DNA of 36,122 nucleotides from the NCBI GenBank assembly GCA_016839605.1, contig JAEOTX010000170.1, positions 1 through 36,122 of the forward strand, read 5' to 3'. Source of the DNA: Candidatus Thorarchaeota archaeon (GTDB lineage: Archaea; Asgardarchaeota; Thorarchaeia; Thorarchaeales; Thorarchaeaceae). Of the stretch, positions 6,368-35,966 are shown one piece after another (the stretch's first letter is position 1; each line of letters begins with the position of its first letter). The translations under genes and the position numbers were made by a program. Under the pieces are notes generated by a model that searched no databases, was not told the origin of the DNA, and was given only the letters and a program-made list of their open reading frames with translations.

Positions 6368-7080
6368 GTGATGAAGACAGCTCACCGTTCTGGGCTTCTC
6401 CGCCGTACATTCTCCTCACTGATGTACTTCAATTGGATAAGATTAAACCATGGAATGTTGATGTTGGCAAGCTTGTTGCTGGATTCATTCGTGAGATGAA
6501 GCGGCTTGGGGACATTGACTTCAGAATCTCTGGAAGTGCATTATATTCGGCTTCTGTCATCTTCATGAAGAAGACCCGTGAGCTTGTTGAGCTTGGAATT
6601 CTTCCTCCGGAATCAGTCGGTGACGATGATGAACTCGTTATTCCTCTAATTAGACCTCCATTCAGAGTAAGCAACCAACGGGTCACTCTTCAAGAATTGC
6701 TGATAGCGATGGATAGAATGCTCAGCAAAGATCCTCGTCCACGCCCTGTTCCTCGTAAGAAAAGGTATCGGCCCAGCATAGAACCTATGGATTTCAAAAT
6801 GGAAACAACACGGGCAGACGTGGAGGAGAACATAACTGAGGTCTACGATGACCTCTTGAAAATAATGGAGATTGGTGAAACGGCAAAGTTCGTTGATATT
6901 CTTATGAACAATACAAGAAGGGAGATTGTCCGTGTCTTCTTCGCCTTACTTCACCTCTATGGTCGTGCGTTCATTGACATCTGGATGGATGATGAGGATA
7001 TCATCTGGGTGAAGATGCTCACACCCCCGCCACCTTCGGAAGAGGAGGAAGAGATACATCCATCTATTGAAACGAAGTGA
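6364..7080 (+). CDS. scpA: Segregation/condensation protein A (kleisin)
   Basis: KPWNVDV...ALYSASVIFMKK N-terminal motif, C-terminal IVRVFFALLHL winged helix; overlaps the smc stop (ATGA). Confidence 0.9.
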   Translation: MSDEDSSPFWASPPYILLTDVLQLDKIKPWNVDVGKLVAGFIREMKRLGDIDFRISGSALYSASVIFMKKTRELVELGILPPESVGDDDELVIPLIRPPFRVSNQRVTLQELLIAMDRMLSKDPRPRPVPRKKRYRPSIEPMDFKMETTRADVEENITEVYDDLLKIMEIGETAKFVDILMNNTRREIVRVFFALLHLYGRAFIDIWMDDEDIIWVKMLTPPPPSEEEEEIHPSIETK

Positions 7081-7649
7081 TTTCCATGGATGATGACAAG
7101 GTGAAATTGGAAGCGGCTCTATATGTAGCAGGCAGGCCCATCTCAATAGAAGAACTGGCTGCTGTCATCGGGAAAGCTGAGTCTTCCACAAAACGGGTGC
7201 TGGAAGAGATTGGCCACGCGTACAACAAGCGAAAAGGAGCTCTTGAGGTTGTAGAGCTTCCTCGAGAGCGATGGGTGATGCAACTCAGACCCGAATTGAC
7301 CCCTCATGTTGCAAAGCTAATTCCAGGCGGACTCCTATCATTCGCCACACTTCAGACTCTGGTATATGTCGCCCTGAAGCAGCCCATCCTTCAATCAAAG
7401 CTTGTTTCTGAAAGGGGAACTCATTGCTATGACCATATCAAAGAACTGACTGAAAAGAAATTCATTGATGCCGTGCCTGAAGGGCGGAGTAAACTGCTAA
7501 AGACTACAACCCTCTTTGCTGATTACTTCGGTCTTGACCATGATCGAATCAAGCTCAAAGCGCAACTTCGTCATCAAATGAAGAAGATTCTACAGGATCA
7601 GCAAGAGCTTGAAGCCAGAGCGGACTTAGGATTTAATGCACGTACTTGA
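7077..7649 (+). CDS. scpB: SMC-Scp complex subunit ScpB (kite)
   Basis: LEAALYVAGRPIS, LQTLVYVALKQPI, TTTLFADYFGL motifs; overlaps the scpA stop. Confidence 0.93.
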   Translation: MISMDDDKVKLEAALYVAGRPISIEELAAVIGKAESSTKRVLEEIGHAYNKRKGALEVVELPRERWVMQLRPELTPHVAKLIPGGLLSFATLQTLVYVALKQPILQSKLVSERGTHCYDHIKELTEKKFIDAVPEGRSKLLKTTTLFADYFGLDHDRIKLKAQLRHQMKKILQDQQELEARADLGFNART

Positions 7650-7711
7650 GAATCATGCTATATCATTATGAAGCTAAAAACACCGCAGGTATTTCTACGG
7701 TATATTGGGGG

Positions 7712-7758
7712 TTAAAATGGAAAGCAGGGGGGACCGCTCAAAGTGAGTGATCCACCCT
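7712..7758 (-). terminator. Stem-loop plus T-rich tract downstream of the 7772-7861 microORF
   Basis: Minus strand AGGGTGGATCACTCA-CTT-TGAGCGGTCCCCCCT followed by GCTTTCCATTTTAA. Confidence 0.55.
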
Positions 7759-7771
7759 AGAGATGCTGTCC

Positions 7772-7861
7772 TTACCAGGGTTCTGGAGGAGGTGTAAAGG
7801 GATTATCGGTGGTCCAGGGCTCTGGTGGGGGTGTGAACGGATTGTCTTGGTGTATTGTCAT
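7772..7861 (-). CDS. Unannotated 29-aa tandem-core peptide MTIHQDNPFTPPPEPWTTDNPFTPPPEPW
   Basis: Two identical 11-aa units encoded with 6 synonymous and 0 non-synonymous differences. TAA follows the final Trp directly. An alternative in-frame GTG lies at 7921. Confidence 0.8.
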   Translation of the reverse strand: MTIHQDNPFTPPPEPWTTDNPFTPPPEPW

Positions 7862-8056
7862 TATAATCAAAATGACACTCTGGTTTCCATGGCAGAAATT
7901 CCTTCTACAGCTTCTGTACACTCAATATGTATTCCTTTGTCGAGTACTAGCTGATGCACATTCCGAAACCAGTACACAATGAATAGGACTTAAAATAGTG
8001 CAACAGCCATCCTGTTTTGGCAGTTCCACTCAGTCGAATTCCATTCAAGCATACTC

Positions 8057-9070
8057 TTAGCAAACTCGTGGAATTGGCTCTCCGTATGGGACCTGCACTA
8101 TCTTTTTCCCGCCAATCTCCGTCTTCATAACAACTCGAGGCGTGCCTTCAGTGACGCTTCCAATAATACGGCATTCATTTGTTGCCCTGTGTTTTCGCAG
8201 AGCTTCTAGAATGTCATCGGTATTGGAGGAGTCAACAGCCATAACCGCAGTCCCCTCACAGCTCATGTGTAGAGCATCGAGTCCAAGAATCTCGCACAAT
8301 GAAACAACTGCAGGTCGTACTGGAATATGACTTTCTTGAATCTCAAATTCCACTCCGGACTTGGATGCAACCTCATTCAATGCAACTGCTGTACCTCCAC
8401 GTGTGGGGTCCTTCATTGCATGCACCCCTCCCGTATCTAGGCAGGCACGGATTGGTTCCCAGAGTGGTGCAACATCACTGGTGAGGTCGGTGTCGAACTC
8501 AAGACCCTCTCTATGAGCAAGTAATGATGTTCCATGGTCACCTATTGGTCCCGTCACGATGATGTCATCACCGGGTTGTGCACCGCTGTCTGCTACTGGT
8601 TTATCTCCGTAGATAACACCAATGCCAGTGGTAGACATAACAAGACTGTCAAGTGTGCCTTTGGGCATGACCTTTGTGTCACCAGCAATCATCGCCACGC
8701 CAATTGGTTCAATCACATCGTTTAGCGACTTGAGGATACTCTGCAAGGTGTCAATCTCAAAGCCCTCTTCCACAATGACTGTGTTCGTCATAGCTACCGG
8801 TTGCGCACCCATAACTGCAAGGTCGTTCACTGTGCCACAAGCTGTTAGTGTTCCGATATTACCTCCAGGGAAGAACAATGGATGGACAGTATGAGCATCA
8901 GTACAGACAATGAACCTTGCGTCATTAAGTTGGAATGTGGCACCATCATCCATCTCATCGAGACCTATTGATCCGAGTTTCCTGTGACTGAATGAAGGAA
9001 TTATCACATCCTCTAGTAGGCGTTGCATCACCCTTCCGCCCGCGCCATGTGCGGTCTCTATTCGAGTCAT
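8057..9070 (-). CDS. hypE: Hydrogenase maturation carbamoyl dehydratase HypE
   Basis: AHGAGG, DAHTVHPLFFPGGNIG, GDTKV, MKDPTRGG and C-terminal PRVC. Start placed at ATG 9070 after GGAGG. Confidence 0.95.
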   Translation of the reverse strand: MTRIETAHGAGGRVMQRLLEDVIIPSFSHRKLGSIGLDEMDDGATFQLNDARFIVCTDAHTVHPLFFPGGNIGTLTACGTVNDLAVMGAQPVAMTNTVIVEEGFEIDTLQSILKSLNDVIEPIGVAMIAGDTKVMPKGTLDSLVMSTTGIGVIYGDKPVADSGAQPGDDIIVTGPIGDHGTSLLAHREGLEFDTDLTSDVAPLWEPIRACLDTGGVHAMKDPTRGGTAVALNEVASKSGVEFEIQESHIPVRPAVVSLCEILGLDALHMSCEGTAVMAVDSSNTDDILEALRKHRATNECRIIGSVTEGTPRVVMKTEIGGKKIVQVPYGEPIPRVC

Positions 9071-9220
9071 TCTTTTGCCTCCGCTCAGGTTATCATCGCC
9101 CATAGTCGTATTTGAACCGGACTGTTTGGACGGTCATTGGTCACTATAACTTGGCCAGTAAGTAAGACTTAAAACCACTCTGCAGTGAGCGACAGTGACC
9201 CAACTAAGAGGTAGTCAGAA

Positions 9221-27391: not shown

Positions 27392-27420
27392 TGGTGCCCC
27401 GACCGGGATTTGAACCCGGG
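27392..27420 (-). repeat. att-like duplication of the 3' 29 nt of tRNA-Glu (T-arm, acceptor strand, CCA)
   Basis: TGGTGCCCCGACCGGGATTTGAACCCGGG vs 35889-35917 TGGTGCCCCGGCCGGGATTCGAACCCGGG (27/29 identical). Confidence 0.92.
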
Positions 27421-27506
27421 ATTGTCATACAAAAACAGACAGATAAAACTAGAGGACTTCAAGATTGGTACAATAGAGAGGGATGAATTACTTATTTCGA
27501 ATAACG

Positions 27507-27591
27507 TGCAAGACTGGTGGTTTTGGAGAAACGGTCCAAAACGCAGCCCTCATAATGCTTATTTCGGCGAAAAGGGCTATAAAGAATGGCG
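27507..27591 (+). promoter_or_regulatory. CRISPR leader 1
   Basis: 27548-27591 is 41/44 identical to 34891-34934, with weaker similarity further upstream; contains CTTATTT and CGAAAAGGGCTATAAA (BRE/TATA-like). Confidence 0.85.
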
Positions 27592-27825
27592 GTATGAATC
27601 GAACTACAAGTAGGATTGAAGAAGGTAATAGAAGAACGGCAGGAAATCCGCAAGAGTGAGTATGAATCGAACTACAAGTAGGATTGAAGCTAGAACGTGT
27701 CGTCGTCGATTGCAGTTATCTGAACTGTATGAATCGAACTACATGTAGGATTGAAACTACACCCACACAATAACACCGACGACAGACGGCTCTCGCATGA
27801 ATCGAACTATATCTAGGATTAGGAT
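27592..27825 (+). CRISPR. CRISPR mini-array 1: 4 repeats (last degenerate), 3 spacers
   Basis: 31-nt consensus GTATGAATCGAACTACAWGTAGGATTGAAAC at 27592, 27660, 27727 and 27795; spacers of 37, 36 and 37 nt. Confidence 0.95.
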
Positions 27826-30272
27826 TGCGACACATTAAGACCCGTATCCGGTGAATAAACATCTTGATCTCTATTCATGTATATTATACCAAATAATAGA
27901 CGTCCCTCGTGGTCACAAACACTTTCTATCTTGCCTCTGAGGTCTTCATAATGCCTGCTGCTTAGATCAATGCTATATCTATAGAATGCAGAAGGTATGC
28001 TCAGCTTCTTCTCAATTAACTTGCTATCTATCTCGGTCAAAATTGATTCAGATTTATTGTCGCAGTTGATGAAAATCTGGCATGCAGACTCGTTTCTATC
28101 AATGAGTCTGAACTTTCGTCCAAGGTCATCCCACTCTAGATGTTCTGCATGATTGAGTGCCACATTCGTTACCTTTCGCTCCCGAATATCAACAAAATAC
28201 TGAGAGAGCCTTTCTCTTAGTTTCTCCTCACTGTATGAGTTTCCTCCCTGCTCTTGTAAGACCTCTCTGGTCATCTCAAGGTCTACTTCGTCATAGACAC
28301 TCTGTGCATACCCTCGATTCGTTTCAGGATCGAATACACATCTCACATTGACGATGCCAAGTTGTTCATGTTCCCAGTTTCTGTTACAGCGGCCTGCAAC
28401 CTGAATGATTGAGTCCAGTGGTGCTAGATCTCTAAAAGCGATGTCAAAAGAAACATCTACACCTGCCTCAATCACTTGAGTACAGACTAGGATGACACGC
28501 GACTTGCGTGATTTGAGTGACTCTCTAAGTGAAACAATTGTCTGCCTTCTATGGACTGGAGCAACCCAACCTGAGAGGAAATAGATTATATCATTTGGAC
28601 CAAGGCAGCTCTGAATTTTCGAGTACACAGAGGCAGCAGCAGCTTTTGTGTTTAGCACCACCAACACATTCGAGGCGGGGTTCTCTCCTAGCCCCTCAAT
28701 GACCTCCTGAGTGAACTCTTCAAGAGGTATACGGGTCGAGTCATATTGCACCTGGTACCTATTGACTCCGGTCCCATCCACAATTGTAGTTAGCATTTCC
28801 TCAGGTTTGAGAATTGTAGGCATAGTTGCAGTTGCAAGCAGAACATGACAGCCAAGGTTTCTAGTGAGTGCTCGTATCGTTTCAGCAATGATGTCCCAAT
28901 ATTTTACAGGGAAGGATTGTACCTCGTCCATCAGGATTATCGAGCGTGCAAGCCTATTGAAGCGGATAGAGTCCCGCTTGGATGAACCCAAAATAGTTTC
29001 ACATAGCCGCACTGTTGTCGTGATGATGATATCAGAACGCCACCTGTCCACAAAGACACTGATGCTCTTTGGGTCGTAATACTCACCTTCAGAACGCCAC
29101 TTCATCTCGCTCAACGAGTGATGCACCGTGAGGAGGGCATCATTCTCCTCATGGTCTATGTCAAAGATGTCCCTGACGAGGTTCTCAACTTGTTCTGCAA
29201 TAGAGATGAATGGTAATGCATAGATGATTCTTGGTGTGAAACTCTCTTGTCTGCGGATTTTTTCACGTATCCTGATTGCGTATGACATCATTGCAAGCGT
29301 CTTTCCAGACCCTGTTGGTGCCTGTAGGGATAAGATTCGAGAAGTTGAACTTAATGCCTCATTTGTGAGATGATATGTGTCCTCTCTCAAGTGTTTGATG
29401 CGTTCCTCTCGTTCATTGGTTGGCGACCGCCAGACACCACTCTGGATTTGTCGCGTCCGATAGAGGTCAATGACATTCTCCTTGATTGTGCTCCTAGGCA
29501 AATCACGCACCACTGAGTGTTTGCCAGTATCTCCAAGAGAGAATCCCGCGTCGTACTCGTCCATGTCACATAGAATGGAGTAGAGAAATCGGTAGAGAAT
29601 GTAATCATCAAGTGATGAGTTCTTTCGATATACTTCAAGGACGTCTTCAATGTCATCTAAAAGACACAGCAAACCGTTATGGTCGAGTCCTAGGAGTTCA
29701 TTGACCGAATCTAATATTGCAAAACTGCTCTGTGGGAAGACAGAATCTGTCAATTGTGGGTCCTCTTTGAAAAGCTCTCTCAGAAGGCTAAGAATCTGAG
29801 ATGTATTGTCGACCTCCTCTCGCAGCATTTCGATTAATGACACTGCTGAGTCCTTTGTTGGCAATGGATTGATGGCCTGAGGGGAGTGATGTTGAAGGAT
29901 TGCTAACATTGCAAATCCAGATAGACAGAATCTGACATCTTCAGGGATATCTGAAAACAACTGCCTTGTTGCCAAGAACCCGAGGAGTGAACCAACATGT
30001 GTATGATAAGACAGAGGAATTTCAGCAGTAGGAATGATTTCATCATTCACCTTGCGCTGAAAGACTGGGGAAGACTTGCCAAAGTCATGGCAATACGCGA
30101 TTGTTTGGACAAGTTGTTCGAGTCGCTTTTGTGTTTCCCTATCTCCAAGAAATGATTCAAGTCTTTCATAATGTGGATGAACATCTTTGAGAATTGCTAG
30201 GGTTCCAGATGCAACTACATCGTTATGTGTCCTAAGCGATTGATGCGGTCGTGCCTTCGACCTGTCCATCAA
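27819..30272 (-). CDS. cas3: CRISPR-associated helicase/nuclease Cas3 (HD + SF2)
   Basis: HD motif CHDFGK, QHH, D-x-D; APTGSGKT, MDEVQ, TAT, TQVIEAGVD, QVAGRCNR. Confidence 0.96.
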   Translation of the reverse strand: MMDRSKARPHQSLRTHNDVVASGTLAILKDVHPHYERLESFLGDRETQKRLEQLVQTIAYCHDFGKSSPVFQRKVNDEIIPTAEIPLSYHTHVGSLLGFLATRQLFSDIPEDVRFCLSGFAMLAILQHHSPQAINPLPTKDSAVSLIEMLREEVDNTSQILSLLRELFKEDPQLTDSVFPQSSFAILDSVNELLGLDHNGLLCLLDDIEDVLEVYRKNSSLDDYILYRFLYSILCDMDEYDAGFSLGDTGKHSVVRDLPRSTIKENVIDLYRTRQIQSGVWRSPTNEREERIKHLREDTYHLTNEALSSTSRILSLQAPTGSGKTLAMMSYAIRIREKIRRQESFTPRIIYALPFISIAEQVENLVRDIFDIDHEENDALLTVHHSLSEMKWRSEGEYYDPKSISVFVDRWRSDIIITTTVRLCETILGSSKRDSIRFNRLARSIILMDEVQSFPVKYWDIIAETIRALTRNLGCHVLLATATMPTILKPEEMLTTIVDGTGVNRYQVQYDSTRIPLEEFTQEVIEGLGENPASNVLVVLNTKAAAASVYSKIQSCLGPNDIIYFLSGWVAPVHRRQTIVSLRESLKSRKSRVILVCTQVIEAGVDVSFDIAFRDLAPLDSIIQVAGRCNRNWEHEQLGIVNVRCVFDPETNRGYAQSVYDEVDLEMTREVLQEQGGNSYSEEKLRERLSQYFVDIRERKVTNVALNHAEHLEWDDLGRKFRLIDRNESACQIFINCDNKSESILTEIDSKLIEKKLSIPSAFYRYSIDLSSRHYEDLRGKIESVCDHEGRLLFGIIYMNRDQDVYSPDTGLNVSQS

Positions 30273-31087
30273 GAACCACCTAAGGGACCAACGGGAAGAG
30301 GTACCACAAACGTATCTGGTGTGGCTTCAACAAGAGCAACAACACCATGTTTCTTCGTCTTTACTACGATTGGACGTTCTTGATCTTTGATTTGATATGC
30401 AACGGAATCAACCAAGTCGGCACTACCAAATGGATGGACATAATCCCCGTATAATTCGACAGGGGTAGTCTTCATTGACATTGGAACACCATGAACAAGT
30501 ACAAAGTCTCCAGTCATTCTCATACGACGATCAACTGAGAGAGAAACAATGCTTGAAACAGAGTGTTCTCCTGAATCAAGAGGTTTGTATTGGCTCCGAG
30601 AGATGAACTCCACCTCAGCTAGCATATTTGCATGTCCAAGATACGGGGGGTATGTGAAGAGATGGTTTCGTAGTGCATTCTCCAATTCATCCATCATATC
30701 ATCATCATTCAAGCCGACATAAAATCTGAATCTTGGTTCAACAAGAAGGTCAAGTCGCTGCTGAGTGTTCATACCACGTTGTGTTTCAGGGTCTGAGGGT
30801 ATTGGTATCATCATCTCTCCGATTCTAGTCGGAAACTTGGTCTGTGTGAAATTAACAGTCATTCCAAGCTTATGACTTGGTTGTAGAACCTCTACCGCGA
30901 TAACTGAGTTTCTAAATGGATTTGCCAGATCCCAATAGGAGTTCCTCGGAAGACCAAGGATTGCTCCAATGAGTCCAATGATTGCAGTCCTAGGTGGAAA
31001 TGGAAAGGTAAGAGCACTTCGCGTGGTTTCAGGAGTCTTGAAGGTTGCATATCTTCCTGATACATCGAAGACCAAGAACTCGGTCAT
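30269..31087 (-). CDS. cas5: Type I-B Cas5 (Cas5h)
   Basis: LVFDVSGRYATFK...LTFPFPPRTAIIGLIGAILG; YPPYLG. Confidence 0.93.
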   Translation of the reverse strand: MTEFLVFDVSGRYATFKTPETTRSALTFPFPPRTAIIGLIGAILGLPRNSYWDLANPFRNSVIAVEVLQPSHKLGMTVNFTQTKFPTRIGEMMIPIPSDPETQRGMNTQQRLDLLVEPRFRFYVGLNDDDMMDELENALRNHLFTYPPYLGHANMLAEVEFISRSQYKPLDSGEHSVSSIVSLSVDRRMRMTGDFVLVHGVPMSMKTTPVELYGDYVHPFGSADLVDSVAYQIKDQERPIVVKTKKHGVVALVEATPDTFVVPLPVGPLGGS

Positions 31088-31098
31088 CTCGCAGACTC

Positions 31099-32079
31099 CT
31101 ACATACCTATCATACCAGTGCGTATCCCTGTCTTTGATAGGAACCCTTCAAGGTCTGTTGATTGCTCATCCTCGTACCTGAAGGTTGTTTGTCCGTCAGA
31201 GTAGTACTCAATCCGATCAATGTGTTCGATGTTCTCCTCAAGCCGGGTCACCAAGGCGGTGATATCGATGATAGCATCATCGATTCTTAAGACTCCATCC
31301 TCCTTGTCAATCATAACATGACGCCATAAATCACCAATCTGGAACTTTGCCTTCTTTGATACAGCTGAAACAATAAAGCGGGGTATCTGTTGAGATTTAG
31401 ACCTAGTATTGAGAGCCTTAGTTCCCCACCACAGTCCTCGATATACCTCTAACATATCCTCTTCCGTCATTCCTGTTATCTTTGCACTACGTTCACAAGC
31501 TATACCATGGAAAAGGATTAAGGAGTAATCCACAACATGAAACTCACCAAGAGTGCCAGCGCCTTTCTCCTCTCCAGAGGATAGACTTGCACTCAGTCCA
31601 TATGTTATAACATTGGGTTTGTTCAATGATCTACCAATGTTGAACTGAACAGGACCAACAATTGATGTATTAGCGGACTCAAGAGTCACTGCAGCACCAA
31701 AACATCGCACATCAATGAACTCCTTTGGAAACTTGTCCATGATTGTCTTTCGTACTTTCTTCCCCTCACTCTTGCTAATCTTTTTGAGTCCGAGTTTTTC
31801 GAGTGCAAGATGAGCCATAGACATTACATAGCCCTCGGGACTGTATTTTTGCTTCACTAGGATATCCATATGCTTCGTACCATGATGTACAGTATCCCAG
31901 TAATCGCGTATTGTACGTTTCAACCTTAGGTCTGTTACAATATTATAGCCCTCATCATCCACCCTAGGTAGGTTTCCACTATCAGGATCACCATTTGGGT
32001 TAGAGTCCTTAACCTCATAGGCAAAGAGTATCTCTCGCCTGTTTTCCAGTTCGCCGTCTGTTTTTCGTTTCTTACTCAT
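31099..32079 (-). CDS. cas7: Type I-B Cas7 (Csh2)
   Basis: NRREILFAYEVKDSNPNGDP...PR...VTDLRLKRTIRDY; IDVRCFGA; GPVQF; TRSK. Confidence 0.95.
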   Translation of the reverse strand: MSKKRKTDGELENRREILFAYEVKDSNPNGDPDSGNLPRVDDEGYNIVTDLRLKRTIRDYWDTVHHGTKHMDILVKQKYSPEGYVMSMAHLALEKLGLKKISKSEGKKVRKTIMDKFPKEFIDVRCFGAAVTLESANTSIVGPVQFNIGRSLNKPNVITYGLSASLSSGEEKGAGTLGEFHVVDYSLILFHGIACERSAKITGMTEEDMLEVYRGLWWGTKALNTRSKSQQIPRFIVSAVSKKAKFQIGDLWRHVMIDKEDGVLRIDDAIIDITALVTRLEENIEHIDRIEYYSDGQTTFRYEDEQSTDLEGFLSKTGIRTGMIGM

Positions 32080-32494
32080 TTCTTTCACCTCTTACTCTGT
32101 TGAAAGAATCATATCCATATACAAATGCAATCTGCAGCTCCTCTGGTCTACTAGTCCACTCTGCTTGAGTTAGAAGCTCAGATGCAAATGCTCTATGTTT
32201 CCAACTCACTCTTCCCTCTGCTCTGCTTTGAACTTTGAATATCAGAGAGCTGGCTTCTGCCATCATGCTCTCCAGTCTTTTTCGGTCAAGATGGTCGAAT
32301 GACCTTGCTACAGCTTTTGCAAGCCCTTTTGTTCGGAACTCAGTTTCCTGAAGGTAGACTGCATAACTCAAGAATGCACCAGTTGCGCACGCCGCTCTCA
32401 CATCTGTCTTCTTATAGAAATGCGAATTGAAAGACTTGCTCATGTCCTCAATCACATTGTCAACAATTGATTTCTCGTCTTGATTTTCTGTCAT
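32072..32494 (-). CDS. cas11: Cas11-like small subunit (equivalent to the C-terminal helical domain of Cas8b/Csh1)
   Basis: 140-aa helical ORF between cas8b and cas7 with G-x6-Q (TGAFLSYAVYLQ) and W..E..F..G (EWTSRPEELQIAFVYG) motifs typical of the Cas8b tail; TAATG overlap with cas8b. Confidence 0.7.
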   Translation of the reverse strand: MTENQDEKSIVDNVIEDMSKSFNSHFYKKTDVRAACATGAFLSYAVYLQETEFRTKGLAKAVARSFDHLDRKRLESMMAEASSLIFKVQSRAEGRVSWKHRAFASELLTQAEWTSRPEELQIAFVYGYDSFNRVRGERNE

Positions 32495-33942
32495 TATTTT
32501 TTACCCCCTAGTAAATCATGATTGTAAAGAGTGTCGTACAGGGTTAGAAGGTCTCGCACTCTGCGTCCCACGAATCTCTGAGTCTGTAACTTTCTCTTGC
32601 CATCCTTCTCACGTATCATGTCCAGAAACATGTGTCTGATAGTGTCCTCTCTGTCATCAGGTCGATACGTAGCTCCAGCTCTTAGAAGTAATCGTCTATC
32701 CACACGTGTGCCAAGAAAGAGTGCGCCAAGGAATGCTGGGAGGACCTTTGGTCCCATGATGTGAAACAGTCGCTGAGTCTTGATTTCAGTCATTCTTGAT
32801 AGACCAAACCCACGCGAGATATCTTCCAGAATGGATGTAATCTCCCTCAAGCGTGTTCCAGGAAAGAAATATGAACCAACCATATTCTTCATCCTGGATT
32901 GGGCTGACTCGTAATAGAAGGCCACAGTATACGACAACCTGTGAGGGAGAACTGATAGGGCCTCAGCAAGGTCTACATTTTCCCGTCGACGTTCGACCTT
33001 TTCCAAAGCGTCCTTGATAGATTGAACAGCACGAGCTTGTCCTCTTCTTGAAACATTGATGAGTGCTCTTACGCACTGTTCCAGGCTTGTCTTGTTCTCT
33101 GTATTAGGAATAATCTGATATCTGACAGGAGTCGTTCCACGACCTCTTCGTACAGAGTAGGCATAGAACGTCATCTCAGACTCAATTATGTTCAAACCAA
33201 CGGTGGCCTGAGTAGTACACTCCTCACAGAGGGGAAACTGCGTAGAATTATTGGGATTGAACCCAATAGAATATCCTACCTGATCGAGTGTGAACATCTT
33301 CGCTGCTGCAAAGCTTGAAACTGAATTCCTTCTCTTACCACATCCATGACACACGACTCCTGAGTCCTCAACAATGGAGCTACTAGTGAATGAATTGACA
33401 AAGAGTTGTCTTAGCTGTTCCAATTCGCCAGGCCAACGATAAGCGCCATCTTCAGGAGCATCAAGTATTCTTAGAATCAGCCACTTTGGTGCGGTATTGG
33501 AAGTGAATTCGTTGGATATGAACAAGTATTCGGAAACAACATCATAGATCCTTTCAAGATTATGCGATAGCCATTGATTCAGCTGTGACACTAGAACGTC
33601 ATTCGTCCCTCTTGTTCGAGTCACAATCCGTCCTAGCTGACTCTTTTTCTTTAGGTTCATAGATTGATTCTCGTCATCCCTTGCCGCCTCCCACTTACGA
33701 AAATCAATTGGATGACAGATGGATGGGAGGGAGTTGCCAGGGGCATATCCAAGAGCATAGAGGGCCTTTTCTTCGTCTTTGAACTCGTAAGACTTGGGAA
33801 CCAAAGGTGAGTCGTTATCCCATATATTGCAGTCTAACACAGCCAGTAGTTTTATGCGGCCTTTATAGCTCTGTTCTATCAGGGCACTATAATAATCTGT
33901 ATCCACAAGTGCTCCAATACGTACAAGCTGTTGAATGATCAT
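32494..33942 (-). CDS. cas8b: Type I-B large subunit Cas8b (Csh1/TM1802-like), lacking the C-terminal domain
   Basis: MIIQQLVRIG start, CHGCG...FTLDQVGY...FPLCEEC Zn finger, YQIIP; position between cas6 and cas7. Confidence 0.8.
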   Translation of the reverse strand: MIIQQLVRIGALVDTDYYSALIEQSYKGRIKLLAVLDCNIWDNDSPLVPKSYEFKDEEKALYALGYAPGNSLPSICHPIDFRKWEAARDDENQSMNLKKKSQLGRIVTRTRGTNDVLVSQLNQWLSHNLERIYDVVSEYLFISNEFTSNTAPKWLILRILDAPEDGAYRWPGELEQLRQLFVNSFTSSSIVEDSGVVCHGCGKRRNSVSSFAAAKMFTLDQVGYSIGFNPNNSTQFPLCEECTTQATVGLNIIESEMTFYAYSVRRGRGTTPVRYQIIPNTENKTSLEQCVRALINVSRRGQARAVQSIKDALEKVERRRENVDLAEALSVLPHRLSYTVAFYYESAQSRMKNMVGSYFFPGTRLREITSILEDISRGFGLSRMTEIKTQRLFHIMGPKVLPAFLGALFLGTRVDRRLLLRAGATYRPDDREDTIRHMFLDMIREKDGKRKLQTQRFVGRRVRDLLTLYDTLYNHDLLGGKK

Positions 33943-34703
33943 CTCACAGTCCCCTTAAGATGTTCTAAGGTCTGAATCGGAATGCCATCCAGAATTGACC
34001 GGACCATTCCGAAACCCATGCTGTTCTTCTCACCCAAGCCGCAGTCATATGCGAAGTCAATGAGCTGCGGGTCGCCTCTCAGTCTGATTTTGTAATAGTA
34101 GGAGCGGTGCCAGATGTCCACGATGCGTACCATTTTCCGCTGAACATCCCAAATCGACACAACTTCAAGGTCACCAGGTTCTTCCTTCTTGAACTCTGAG
34201 TACTTCCTCCTTAGTTTCTCTACAAGCAGCTCTGCATAATCCATATCGTCTGGTCCAATCTCCCATTGTTTGGTCTGTCCGTCCTTCTGGATGATTGTCC
34301 TCACGAGCGTGGGTGACATTGAGATTAACGTGTCCTCACCTCTACTGTTGGAATACTCATAGGGCTCGGAAACAGATAAGACTCTGAAGGGAACTCCCTG
34401 AATGCTGATTGAATCAACATCATTCAGAGATGAGATCATCACATCTAACAGGTTATTGTCAGGTGTGCTATACCAAAGAGTCGCGCCCCCAAGGGCTTTT
34501 ATCCCATTCTTCCGTGTCTGTATCGAATCGATGTATAGCCGAGAGAATGAGAAGAATTTGTAAGATTTCTGATCGTGAAGAGCGTCATATTCTGTCCCTT
34601 TGAGCAAGCTAAACAGAGCTGATGCTACTGAATGCTGATAATTGTAGTCGATGACACACGGTCCAGATGTCATCTCTGGAATAATGACCAAACGAATTCT
34701 CGT
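33939..34703 (-). CDS. cas6: CRISPR endoribonuclease Cas6 (start ACG 34703 or TTG 34691)
   Basis: YNYQH, LHD..YKFFSFS, SP motif, C-terminal G-loop YDCGLGEKNSMGFGMV. Confidence 0.95.
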   Translation of the reverse strand, partial: TRIRLVIIPEMTSGPCVIDYNYQHSVASALFSLLKGTEYDALHDQKSYKFFSFSRLYIDSIQTRKNGIKALGGATLWYSTPDNNLLDVMISSLNDVDSISIQGVPFRVLSVSEPYEYSNSRGEDTLISMSPTLVRTIIQKDGQTKQWEIGPDDMDYAELLVEKLRRKYSEFKKEEPGDLEVVSIWDVQRKMVRIVDIWHRSYYYKIRLRGDPQLIDFAYDCGLGEKNSMGFGMVRSILDGIPIQTLEHLKGTVR

Positions 34704-34849
34704 TTCCTCTACCCCCAGTACCTCCTATGAGCGTGCGTGAGTGACGCGCATGTAGCTAGAACTCTGTGCGCTAATAAGAGGTTCTCTCAAATTCTCTGAG
34801 AAATGTTCACTCTTTAGATAACCAAAGACTGTGAACACTCTGAGGTTCT

Positions 34850-34934
34850 TGCAGAACTGGAGGTTTTCAGAAACTGCTTGAAGAAAGGGGCCTCATAATG
34901 CTTATTTTGGCGAAAAGGGCTATAAGAAATGGCG
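34850..34934 (+). promoter_or_regulatory. CRISPR leader 2, divergent from cas6
   Basis: Near-copy of leader 1. Confidence 0.85.
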
Positions 34935-35100
34935 GTATGAATCGAACTACAAGTAGGATTGAAACAAGTATTGCCCAGAGGCCCAACCCGCTAGATTTAC
35001 CTGTATGAATCGAACTACATGTAGGATTGAAACCACATCGGCGGGGATGCCAACACAGCAGGAACTGTGGTATGAATCGAACTATAAATGGGGTTGAAAC
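34935..35100 (+). CRISPR. CRISPR mini-array 2: 3 repeats (last degenerate), 2 spacers
   Basis: Same repeat at 34935, 35003 and 35070; spacers of 37 and 36 nt. Confidence 0.95.
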
Positions 35101-35142
35101 CCCTATGTAGAAAGCCAATCAGTAACTCGGTCATTACCAAAG

Positions 35143-35877
35143 ATGAGGAATGGAACTCGTGATTTATGGATGCCCACAGTAATCGATAAGATGATTCGGT
35201 TAGCTGGAATTCCACCTGGTGATCGAACAATTTTGAACTATGGTTTGCCAGAACTTAGCATGACTTGGTCAATACCTGCAATCTGTGAATACTTCAAACA
35301 AATGATTGCACAAGAGAGTAAAATCGATTCCAATGGTCGCATTGTTTGGGGCCGCACTAATGCTTTATATGCTGGAAAGAAGACTCAAGCCTACAACTTC
35401 AAATCACAAATTTCTGTAGATGCTTACAATTTCCTGAAGACATCTGGACAAATGAGGGAGTTAAAGAAAGCCAAAGGTTACGAGAAAATCAGAGAGAGAT
35501 ACATAGCTTTGGGACGACTTGCTGATTTGAAGAATAACAGACACTCAAAAGAATCAGTTATAGCTGCGGAATTGATTGAGGTCATCGAACACAATCGAAA
35601 TAGGTTAATTGATGATAAAACTAATCTTCTGAAGAAACTCGGATTTTCTGTTAGTGTTGCACCACGTAGACTTTCCTACCACAAGAACAGTGAGAGAGTC
35701 ACCGTAAGCTGGAGTGCTAACATCAATAGTATTTCCTCTAAAATCATGGTTGCACTAGTTATGTTTCCAAGACATCCTACTAAATCTCTGCGCTTGAAAA
35801 ACTGGTTACAAAGCAGGTCGAAGGATGAAATCGACACTGCAATTGGGAATCTCAGGAAAAGAGGATTCACATTATAG
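35143..35877 (+). CDS. Hypothetical basic protein, LAGLIDADG-like fold, probably N-terminally truncated
   Basis: GIPPGDRT..N..LP followed by EYFKQMIAQESKI resembles a degenerate second LAGLIDADG motif; later LLKKLGFSV. Visibly AT-richer than host genes. Confidence 0.5.
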   Translation: MRNGTRDLWMPTVIDKMIRLAGIPPGDRTILNYGLPELSMTWSIPAICEYFKQMIAQESKIDSNGRIVWGRTNALYAGKKTQAYNFKSQISVDAYNFLKTSGQMRELKKAKGYEKIRERYIALGRLADLKNNRHSKESVIAAELIEVIEHNRNRLIDDKTNLLKKLGFSVSVAPRRLSYHKNSERVTVSWSANINSISSKIMVALVMFPRHPTKSLRLKNWLQSRSKDEIDTAIGNLRKRGFTL

Positions 35878-35888
35878 AATAAAGAAAA

Positions 35889-35966
35889 TGGTGCCCCGGC
35901 CGGGATTCGAACCCGGGTCGTTGACTCGAAAGGCCAAAATGCTGGGCCGGGCTACACTACCGGGGC
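35889..35966 (-). tRNA. tRNA-Glu (anticodon TTC), CCA encoded, intronless
   Basis: GCCCCGG/CCGGGGC acceptor stem, anticodon arm TTGGC-CTTTCGA-GTCAA, T-arm CCGGG-TTCGAAT-CCCGG, ACCA end; CTTAATAA box upstream. Confidence 0.98.

Follow-up and report, generated by a model that had tools for sequence, protein, structure and literature searches.

A micropeptide gene with tandem proline-rich cores in the scpB-hypE gap of a Thorarchaeota archaeon, and its candidate partner with a predicted Lrp/AsnC-type fold

In the RRNPPA systems (Rap-Phr, PlcR-PapR, Rgg-SHP and AimR-AimP), peptides and receptors form allele-specific pairs, and some of these systems have repeated cores or solo peptide genes. To our knowledge, no regulator under peptide control has been described in Asgard archaea, and what Lrp/AsnC proteins are known to sense is amino acids rather than encoded peptides. 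The RRNPPA receptors contain five or nine TPRs, and their peptides are secreted (PMC12700828). Here, we analyzed a 36,122-nt stretch of DNA from a Thorarchaeota genome (G000), referred to as the window. Sequence comparison indicates that it holds a real member of an undescribed Thorarchaeota module, for which we infer a function, made of a very small peptide gene and a partner gene, P670. A literature search found no published account of this peptide-P670 module.

The gene occupies 29 codons on the minus strand (7861-7772) and comprises a 5-residue leader, an 11-residue core ending in E-P-W (core 1, 7846-7814), a linker of two threonines, a second core of identical peptide sequence (core 2, 7807-7775), and a stop codon directly after it. 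Between the two units of 33 nt there are six differences, all at third positions and all synonymous, for which the chance probability is 1.2e-4 to 3.3e-4 (synonymous-site fraction 0.22-0.26); the ORF, its units and the six differences are exactly those listed in the initial annotation. A single synonymous change separates core 1 from the corresponding core of a second copy in the same genome, on contig C197, and the four cores of G000 encode one peptide, with synonymous differences only.

An overlapping plus-strand ORF (7763-7954, 63 aa), already suspected of masking the gene, has 6 of 11 residues altered between the units and is, judged from this comparison, spurious. The exact antisense register of the units has only 1 of 10 residues altered, because its third positions are shared with the minus frame; it is the start, stop and SD-like signals of the homologues that identify the minus frame as the coding one. 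The gene is flanked by scpB (7077-7649, plus strand; Pfam SMC_ScpB) and hypE (8057-9103, minus strand; Pfam AIRS and AIRS_C), both outside the module; we take the C-terminal PRVC of the latter as the mark of HypE. Since hypE is intact to its end at 8057, the segment is not the eroded tail of a longer gene, a possibility raised at the outset. Together with the homologues, these comparisons support a real gene under purifying selection.

Rfam matches in the window were limited to a tRNA. Positions 27392-35966 hold a type I-B-like CRISPR-Cas island (cas6, a TM1802-type cas8, a 140-aa gene, cas7, cas5 and cas3), in which no cas1, cas2 or cas4 was seen. Mini-arrays lie on both sides of the island, one with 4 repeats and one with 3, and their 80-nt leader is duplicated; the island is bounded by a duplicated 29-nt piece of the tRNA at 35892-35966, which looks like an integration site.

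The alignment with the C197 copy indicates that the micropeptide gene is a recent duplicate of promoter, leader and ORF (7772-8006, minus strand; 78% identical to G000:C197:9793-10027), inserted between scpB and hypE. The homology extends over 236 nt, from just before a TATA-like box to the stop codon exactly. The scpB-hypE gap (7650-8056), marked by this recent insertion, spans ~400 nt in both G000 and its sister genome G001, and ~20-100 nt in most relatives with both genes adjacent. The C197 source copy precedes a 667-aa gene, P670, whereas the window copy is an orphan with no P670 beside it. The earlier remark that no receptor lies nearby is thus right for the orphan but not for the family, in which P670 is the fixed genomic partner, as beside the C197 source copy.

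The TATA-like box, expected near 7990-7996, was located at 7997-7989 (minus strand), at the start of the stretch common to both copies; it is kept in the C197 copy and in genus homologues and is a candidate promoter. Between box and gene lies a dyad, AGAA-N5-TTCT (7908-7892, minus strand, 45 nt before the ATG), that is kept only in this allele clade and is weak as an RNA hairpin in folding. It resembles the Lrp consensus sites of E. coli (quoted from PMC5554404). The family as a whole does not share the dyad, and G000 contains 15 looser versions of it. A search with the leader-dyad pattern yielded nothing beyond chance matches in metagenomes; in genomes, it found five loci on four Thorarchaeota-type contigs, alongside chance matches. 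The dyad might possibly serve as an operator and is treated as a lead only. On the 3' side, a strong hairpin directly follows the stop (7771-7719, minus strand; -23.9 kcal/mol, z -4.1) and is probably a 3'-end or terminator element. The T-tract at first assigned to this hairpin belongs instead to a second, terminator-like one, recognized from sequence and folding (7703-7676, minus strand).

To place the gene in a family, we compared the DNA around P670 genes. A short ORF ending near E/D-P-W/F was present in 58 of 88 regions upstream of P670, against 2 of 88 in the antisense control; among the 58, one or two resemble chance occurrences. Two more genera contribute members with related x-P-W endings. 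For about a quarter of the P670 genes, a group made up mainly of the most divergent ones, no peptide was found in the flanking DNA fetched. The exact core pattern had no match in a genome contig search. The homologue check proposed in the initial annotation yielded homologues with 1-4 tandem cores, mostly synonymous change and a P670 neighbor. The pair is kept together where other neighbors differ (G003). In four genomes (G047, G048, G057 and G023), the peptide gene lies downstream of P670 or in convergent orientation to it.

The family peptides are 12-86 residues long, many of them only 12-15 residues in all. Most are single-core, and 18 of 65 carry tandem cores. Their N-termini and linkers are unconserved; the conserved part is the C-terminal E-P-W/F, with the stop directly after the aromatic residue in 52 of 65. 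The set was chosen by this C-terminal motif, which makes the frequency of the motif circular; no such circularity affects the scarcity of NPF (3/65) and PPP (6/65). Neither the EH-domain ligand nor the ribosome-stalling peptide first suggested on account of these two motifs agrees with such counts. Between near-identical tandem cores, 43 synonymous changes stand against 1 non-synonymous change family-wide, so that selection acts on the peptide and not on the DNA, as proposed from the window gene. SD-like words at -15 to -4 were found in 31 of 63 members, compared with 4-12 of 63 in control windows. A hairpin with z < -2 follows the stop in 48% of 64 members, compared with 6% of upstream controls, its position being kept family-wide and its sequence unconserved. 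A scan of the 65 peptides found no credible signal region: a hydrophobic 8-mer occurs in two, both probably from a wrong start.

Three further loci were noted. G000 has a second pair, in which a single-core peptide gene (L156:1963-2010, contig C207) lies upstream of a slowly evolving P670 paralogue; the C207 peptide is identical in G001. In G011 (L071, contig C100), a peptide gene upstream of P670 has at least four cores and an assembly gap inside, and core number may therefore be under-counted in assemblies. A fourth P-E-P-W-ended micro-ORF of G000 (L177:735-800, contig C111, minus strand), with a 41-aa ORF before it, is divergent from two wHTH/AsnC-type proteins of 391 and 490 aa, for which no relationship to P670 was detected; peptides ending in P-W were present at all 11 genus loci of this type with enough flanking DNA.

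Of 86 genomes of the family, 75 encode P670, with 1-3 copies each; elsewhere in the phylum, it was found in only 1 of 224 sampled genomes. This sole match outside the Thorarchaeota family (G300:C292:110-2125) is as close as in-family members are, and its contig is probably mis-binned. Among 1.8 billion representatives, 165 P670 matches were found. No match was obtained with Pfam, AsnC/Lrp profiles included, at E 0.05 (42 members), or with PDB sequences at E 1, and Pfam scans of 42 and 88 members revealed no TPR family.

The AlphaFold2 model of P670 (pLDDT 88.5) is predicted to be beta-rich with a tandem wHTH-RAM. In fold searches, this Lrp/AsnC fold was assigned to residues 326-661 of the predicted model, with NirDL as the best solved match (Foldseek E 2.5e-5, Z 10.7, rmsd 5.6, 267 aligned), and the Atlas neighbors of P670 were archaeal multi-domain HTH_AsnC proteins. 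NirDL is a siroheme decarboxylase. As the Lrp fold serves both regulators and enzymes (PMC3942049), it does not settle the function of P670. The N-terminal half (325 residues) reached pLDDT 91.5 when folded alone and had no convincing match in fold searches; an Atlas feature search with residues 90-325 gave no usable match. Within this half, residues 112-185 form three strands followed by helices, with no PqqD/RRE among the fold matches listed; an RRE identity for them obtained no match in these searches, absence there not being proof. Residues 187-325 weakly resemble zincin peptidases, with Z up to 4.1, below the tool's meaningful level, and lack HExxH in the alignment. P670 has near-invariant polar and aromatic residues (E149, D249, R363, W396, H400, N448, R640 and Q658), and its HTH helices are not among its most conserved parts. 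No column of the alignment co-varied clearly with the W/F ending of the peptide. A complex prediction for P670 and the peptide of the window gene, lengthened to 30 residues with one additional in-frame codon, scored 0.14, the mark being 0.32, and counts neither way.

The annotated neighbors of the peptide copies are rubrerythrin, a flavodiiron protein, an Ig-like surface protein, scpB and hypE. In most genus members, the flavodiiron protein and rubrerythrin lie upstream of the locus-1 P670, and a very large surface protein with Ig-like repeats (up to ~2600 aa; L059:12197-17140 and homologues) is convergent to it.

The comparison of G000 with G001 revealed an exchange of alleles. The two genomes are 97% identical in ScpB, 97.5% in rubrerythrin, 91% in the second P670 paralogue and 99% in promoters, whereas their locus-1 P670s are only 43% identical. 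The two belong to separate clades, each with full support, and the AU test rejects their sisterhood (p 1.7e-87). The switch from 97-99% to low identity takes place ~40 nt before the ATG of the peptide gene, indicating that the exchange involved peptide and P670 together, as a single cassette; as the switch lies inside single contigs, mis-binning is an unlikely cause of the mismatch. The orphan copies of the two genomes have orthologous flanks (99-100% identical upstream, 88% downstream), and in each genome the core type of the orphan is that of its own cassette: the P-F type in G000 and the P-H type in G001. Gene conversion is the likely route of this match. The conversion tract does not extend beyond the coding part, and later core changes are synonymous only, which suggests that selection kept the orphan peptide matched to the resident P670. 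This match rests on one event in two genomes.

We propose that the peptide is an intracellular, allele-specific ligand of P670 that acts in trans, a reading to which we give about an even chance (~0.5). In its favor we count the selection on the peptide, the SD-like words, the genomic coupling to P670, the variable position of the peptide gene, the allele swap with its matching orphans, the predicted fold of P670, the dyad of this clade, and the P-W-ended peptides divergent from the other wHTH/AsnC-type pair at C111. Less favorable are the P670 genes with no peptide in the DNA fetched, the lack of a P670 column that clearly co-varies with the W/F ending, HTH helices that are not the most conserved parts of P670, the use of the Lrp fold by enzymes as well, and a dyad restricted to one clade. 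The window gene would be translated into a short cytoplasmic peptide, its working part being the proline-rich core ending in E-P-W, and this core would bind the cognate allele of P670, a Thorarchaeota-specific protein of ~670 residues. P670 would in turn bind DNA and regulate an output in one direction or the other. The normal cassette would be read in the order promoter, peptide, hairpin and P670; the hairpin probably lets the peptide mRNA exceed the P670 mRNA, setting the stoichiometry, and tandem cores might raise dose or avidity. The orphan of the window would then be an additional source of peptide, acting in trans on the P670 of C197. That an orphan copy follows the allele of its partner is the best genetic argument we found for trans action, although the match may also come from neutral gene conversion. 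A wider view, tentative and on balance doubtful, is that Thorarchaeota possess allele-specific peptide signaling on an Lrp-fold receptor unrelated to the bacterial TPR receptors, with cassettes swapped like pherotypes and orphans kept in step.

The usual layout, in which peptide, hairpin and P670 follow one another within 100-230 nt, would also suit a cis-acting leader or arrest peptide, in which a ribosome pause at E-P-W near the stop governs the hairpin and read-through into P670; in this view, the window copy would have arisen as a side effect of duplication and stayed similar through gene conversion. The long 5' leader of the peptide gene and the frequent stop directly after the aromatic residue point the same way. 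However, cores in internal positions of a tandem, distant from any stop, are no less strictly conserved, PPP is rare, and the orphan has no gene to control and yet shows synonymous changes only and follows the P670 allele. The convergent, downstream and orphan placements are not explicable by a cis leader, and the interchange of W and F in the ending speaks against Trp sensing. We consider this explanation unlikely.

Quite unlikely, in our estimate, is a RiPP-like pair, with P670 as a new Lrp-fold modifying or processing enzyme and the tandem cores as its substrates. The initial annotation had compared the gene with a PatE-like RiPP precursor, and the comparison finds no support, as no conserved leader, known modifying enzyme or RRE match was found; many members, moreover, are 12-15 residues in all. 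No known RiPP enzyme, protease or exporter is among the annotated neighbors, and the zincin-like part of P670 is devoid of HExxH. A pairing of this kind would nevertheless agree with the multi-core minority of the peptides, with an Lrp-fold enzyme being the best solved match, with the near-invariant polar and aromatic residues of P670, and with its weak likeness to zincins.

The pherotype-like swap between sister genomes could suggest an exported quorum or kin-recognition pheromone acting between cells, with P670 as its intracellular receptor. Leaderless peptides whose export route is not known do exist among RRNPPA systems (PMC12700828) and offer a precedent. Against this, the family peptides are without a hydrophobic signal region and so have no evident export route for a cell-to-cell signal, and no transporter or protease travels with the peptide-P670 pair, making such a role very improbable.

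Proline-rich aromatic cores resemble ligands of EH, SH3, EVH1 or WW-type domains, and the window peptide contains NPF and P-P-x-x-W, but an adaptor for another cytoplasmic domain of this kind, linked to P670 by co-regulation only, is scarcely credible even with the weak PH-like matches of the P670 N-terminus (Rpn13 PRU, Z 3.4, 55 aligned, below the tool's meaningful level), as NPF is rare, P-P-x-x-W/F occurs in 10 of 65 members, and the peptide changes with the P670 allele and not with the species. A Homer-type P-P-x-x-F ligand was dropped on the same motif count.

Returning to the preferred reading of an allele-specific ligand acting in trans, the two natural P670 alleles and ligands of 10-11 residues make cognate versus non-cognate binding testable without culture. 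The module shares features with several described systems and coincides with none of them. Like leader and arrest peptides of the TnaC and SecM type, it has a short upstream ORF, a hairpin, a downstream gene and conserved residues beside the stop; unlike them, it has tandem cores, convergent and orphan placements, and an allele tracking that is not expected of a cis element. As in multi-core RiPP precursors of the cyanobactin PatE type, a short leader precedes tandem identical cores under purifying selection, whereas the leader and recognition sequences are unconserved, no known maturation enzymes or RRE were found, and most members are single-core.

P670 is like Lrp/AsnC regulators and the siroheme decarboxylases NirDL/AhbAB in the tandem wHTH-RAM fold predicted for residues 326-661, and like the former in the dyad similar to the E. 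coli Lrp consensus that precedes the peptide gene in this clade. It differs from both in having no Pfam or PDB sequence match, in its 325 extra N-terminal residues, and in its presumed ligand, which would be an encoded peptide and not a free amino acid or tetrapyrrole. With RRNPPA, the module has in common a tiny peptide gene beside a cognate regulator-type gene, a presumed active part at the C-terminus, and allele-specific pairing. The adjoining of peptide and receptor genes, a criterion for RRNPPA systems, is found at the C197 source copy and not at the orphan copy of the window. The differences are that P670 has a predicted tandem Lrp/AsnC fold and lacks TPRs, that a signal region is missing from the peptide, and that the module occurs in an Asgard archaeon; the peptide-P670 module is hence analogous, not homologous, to the RRNPPA systems.
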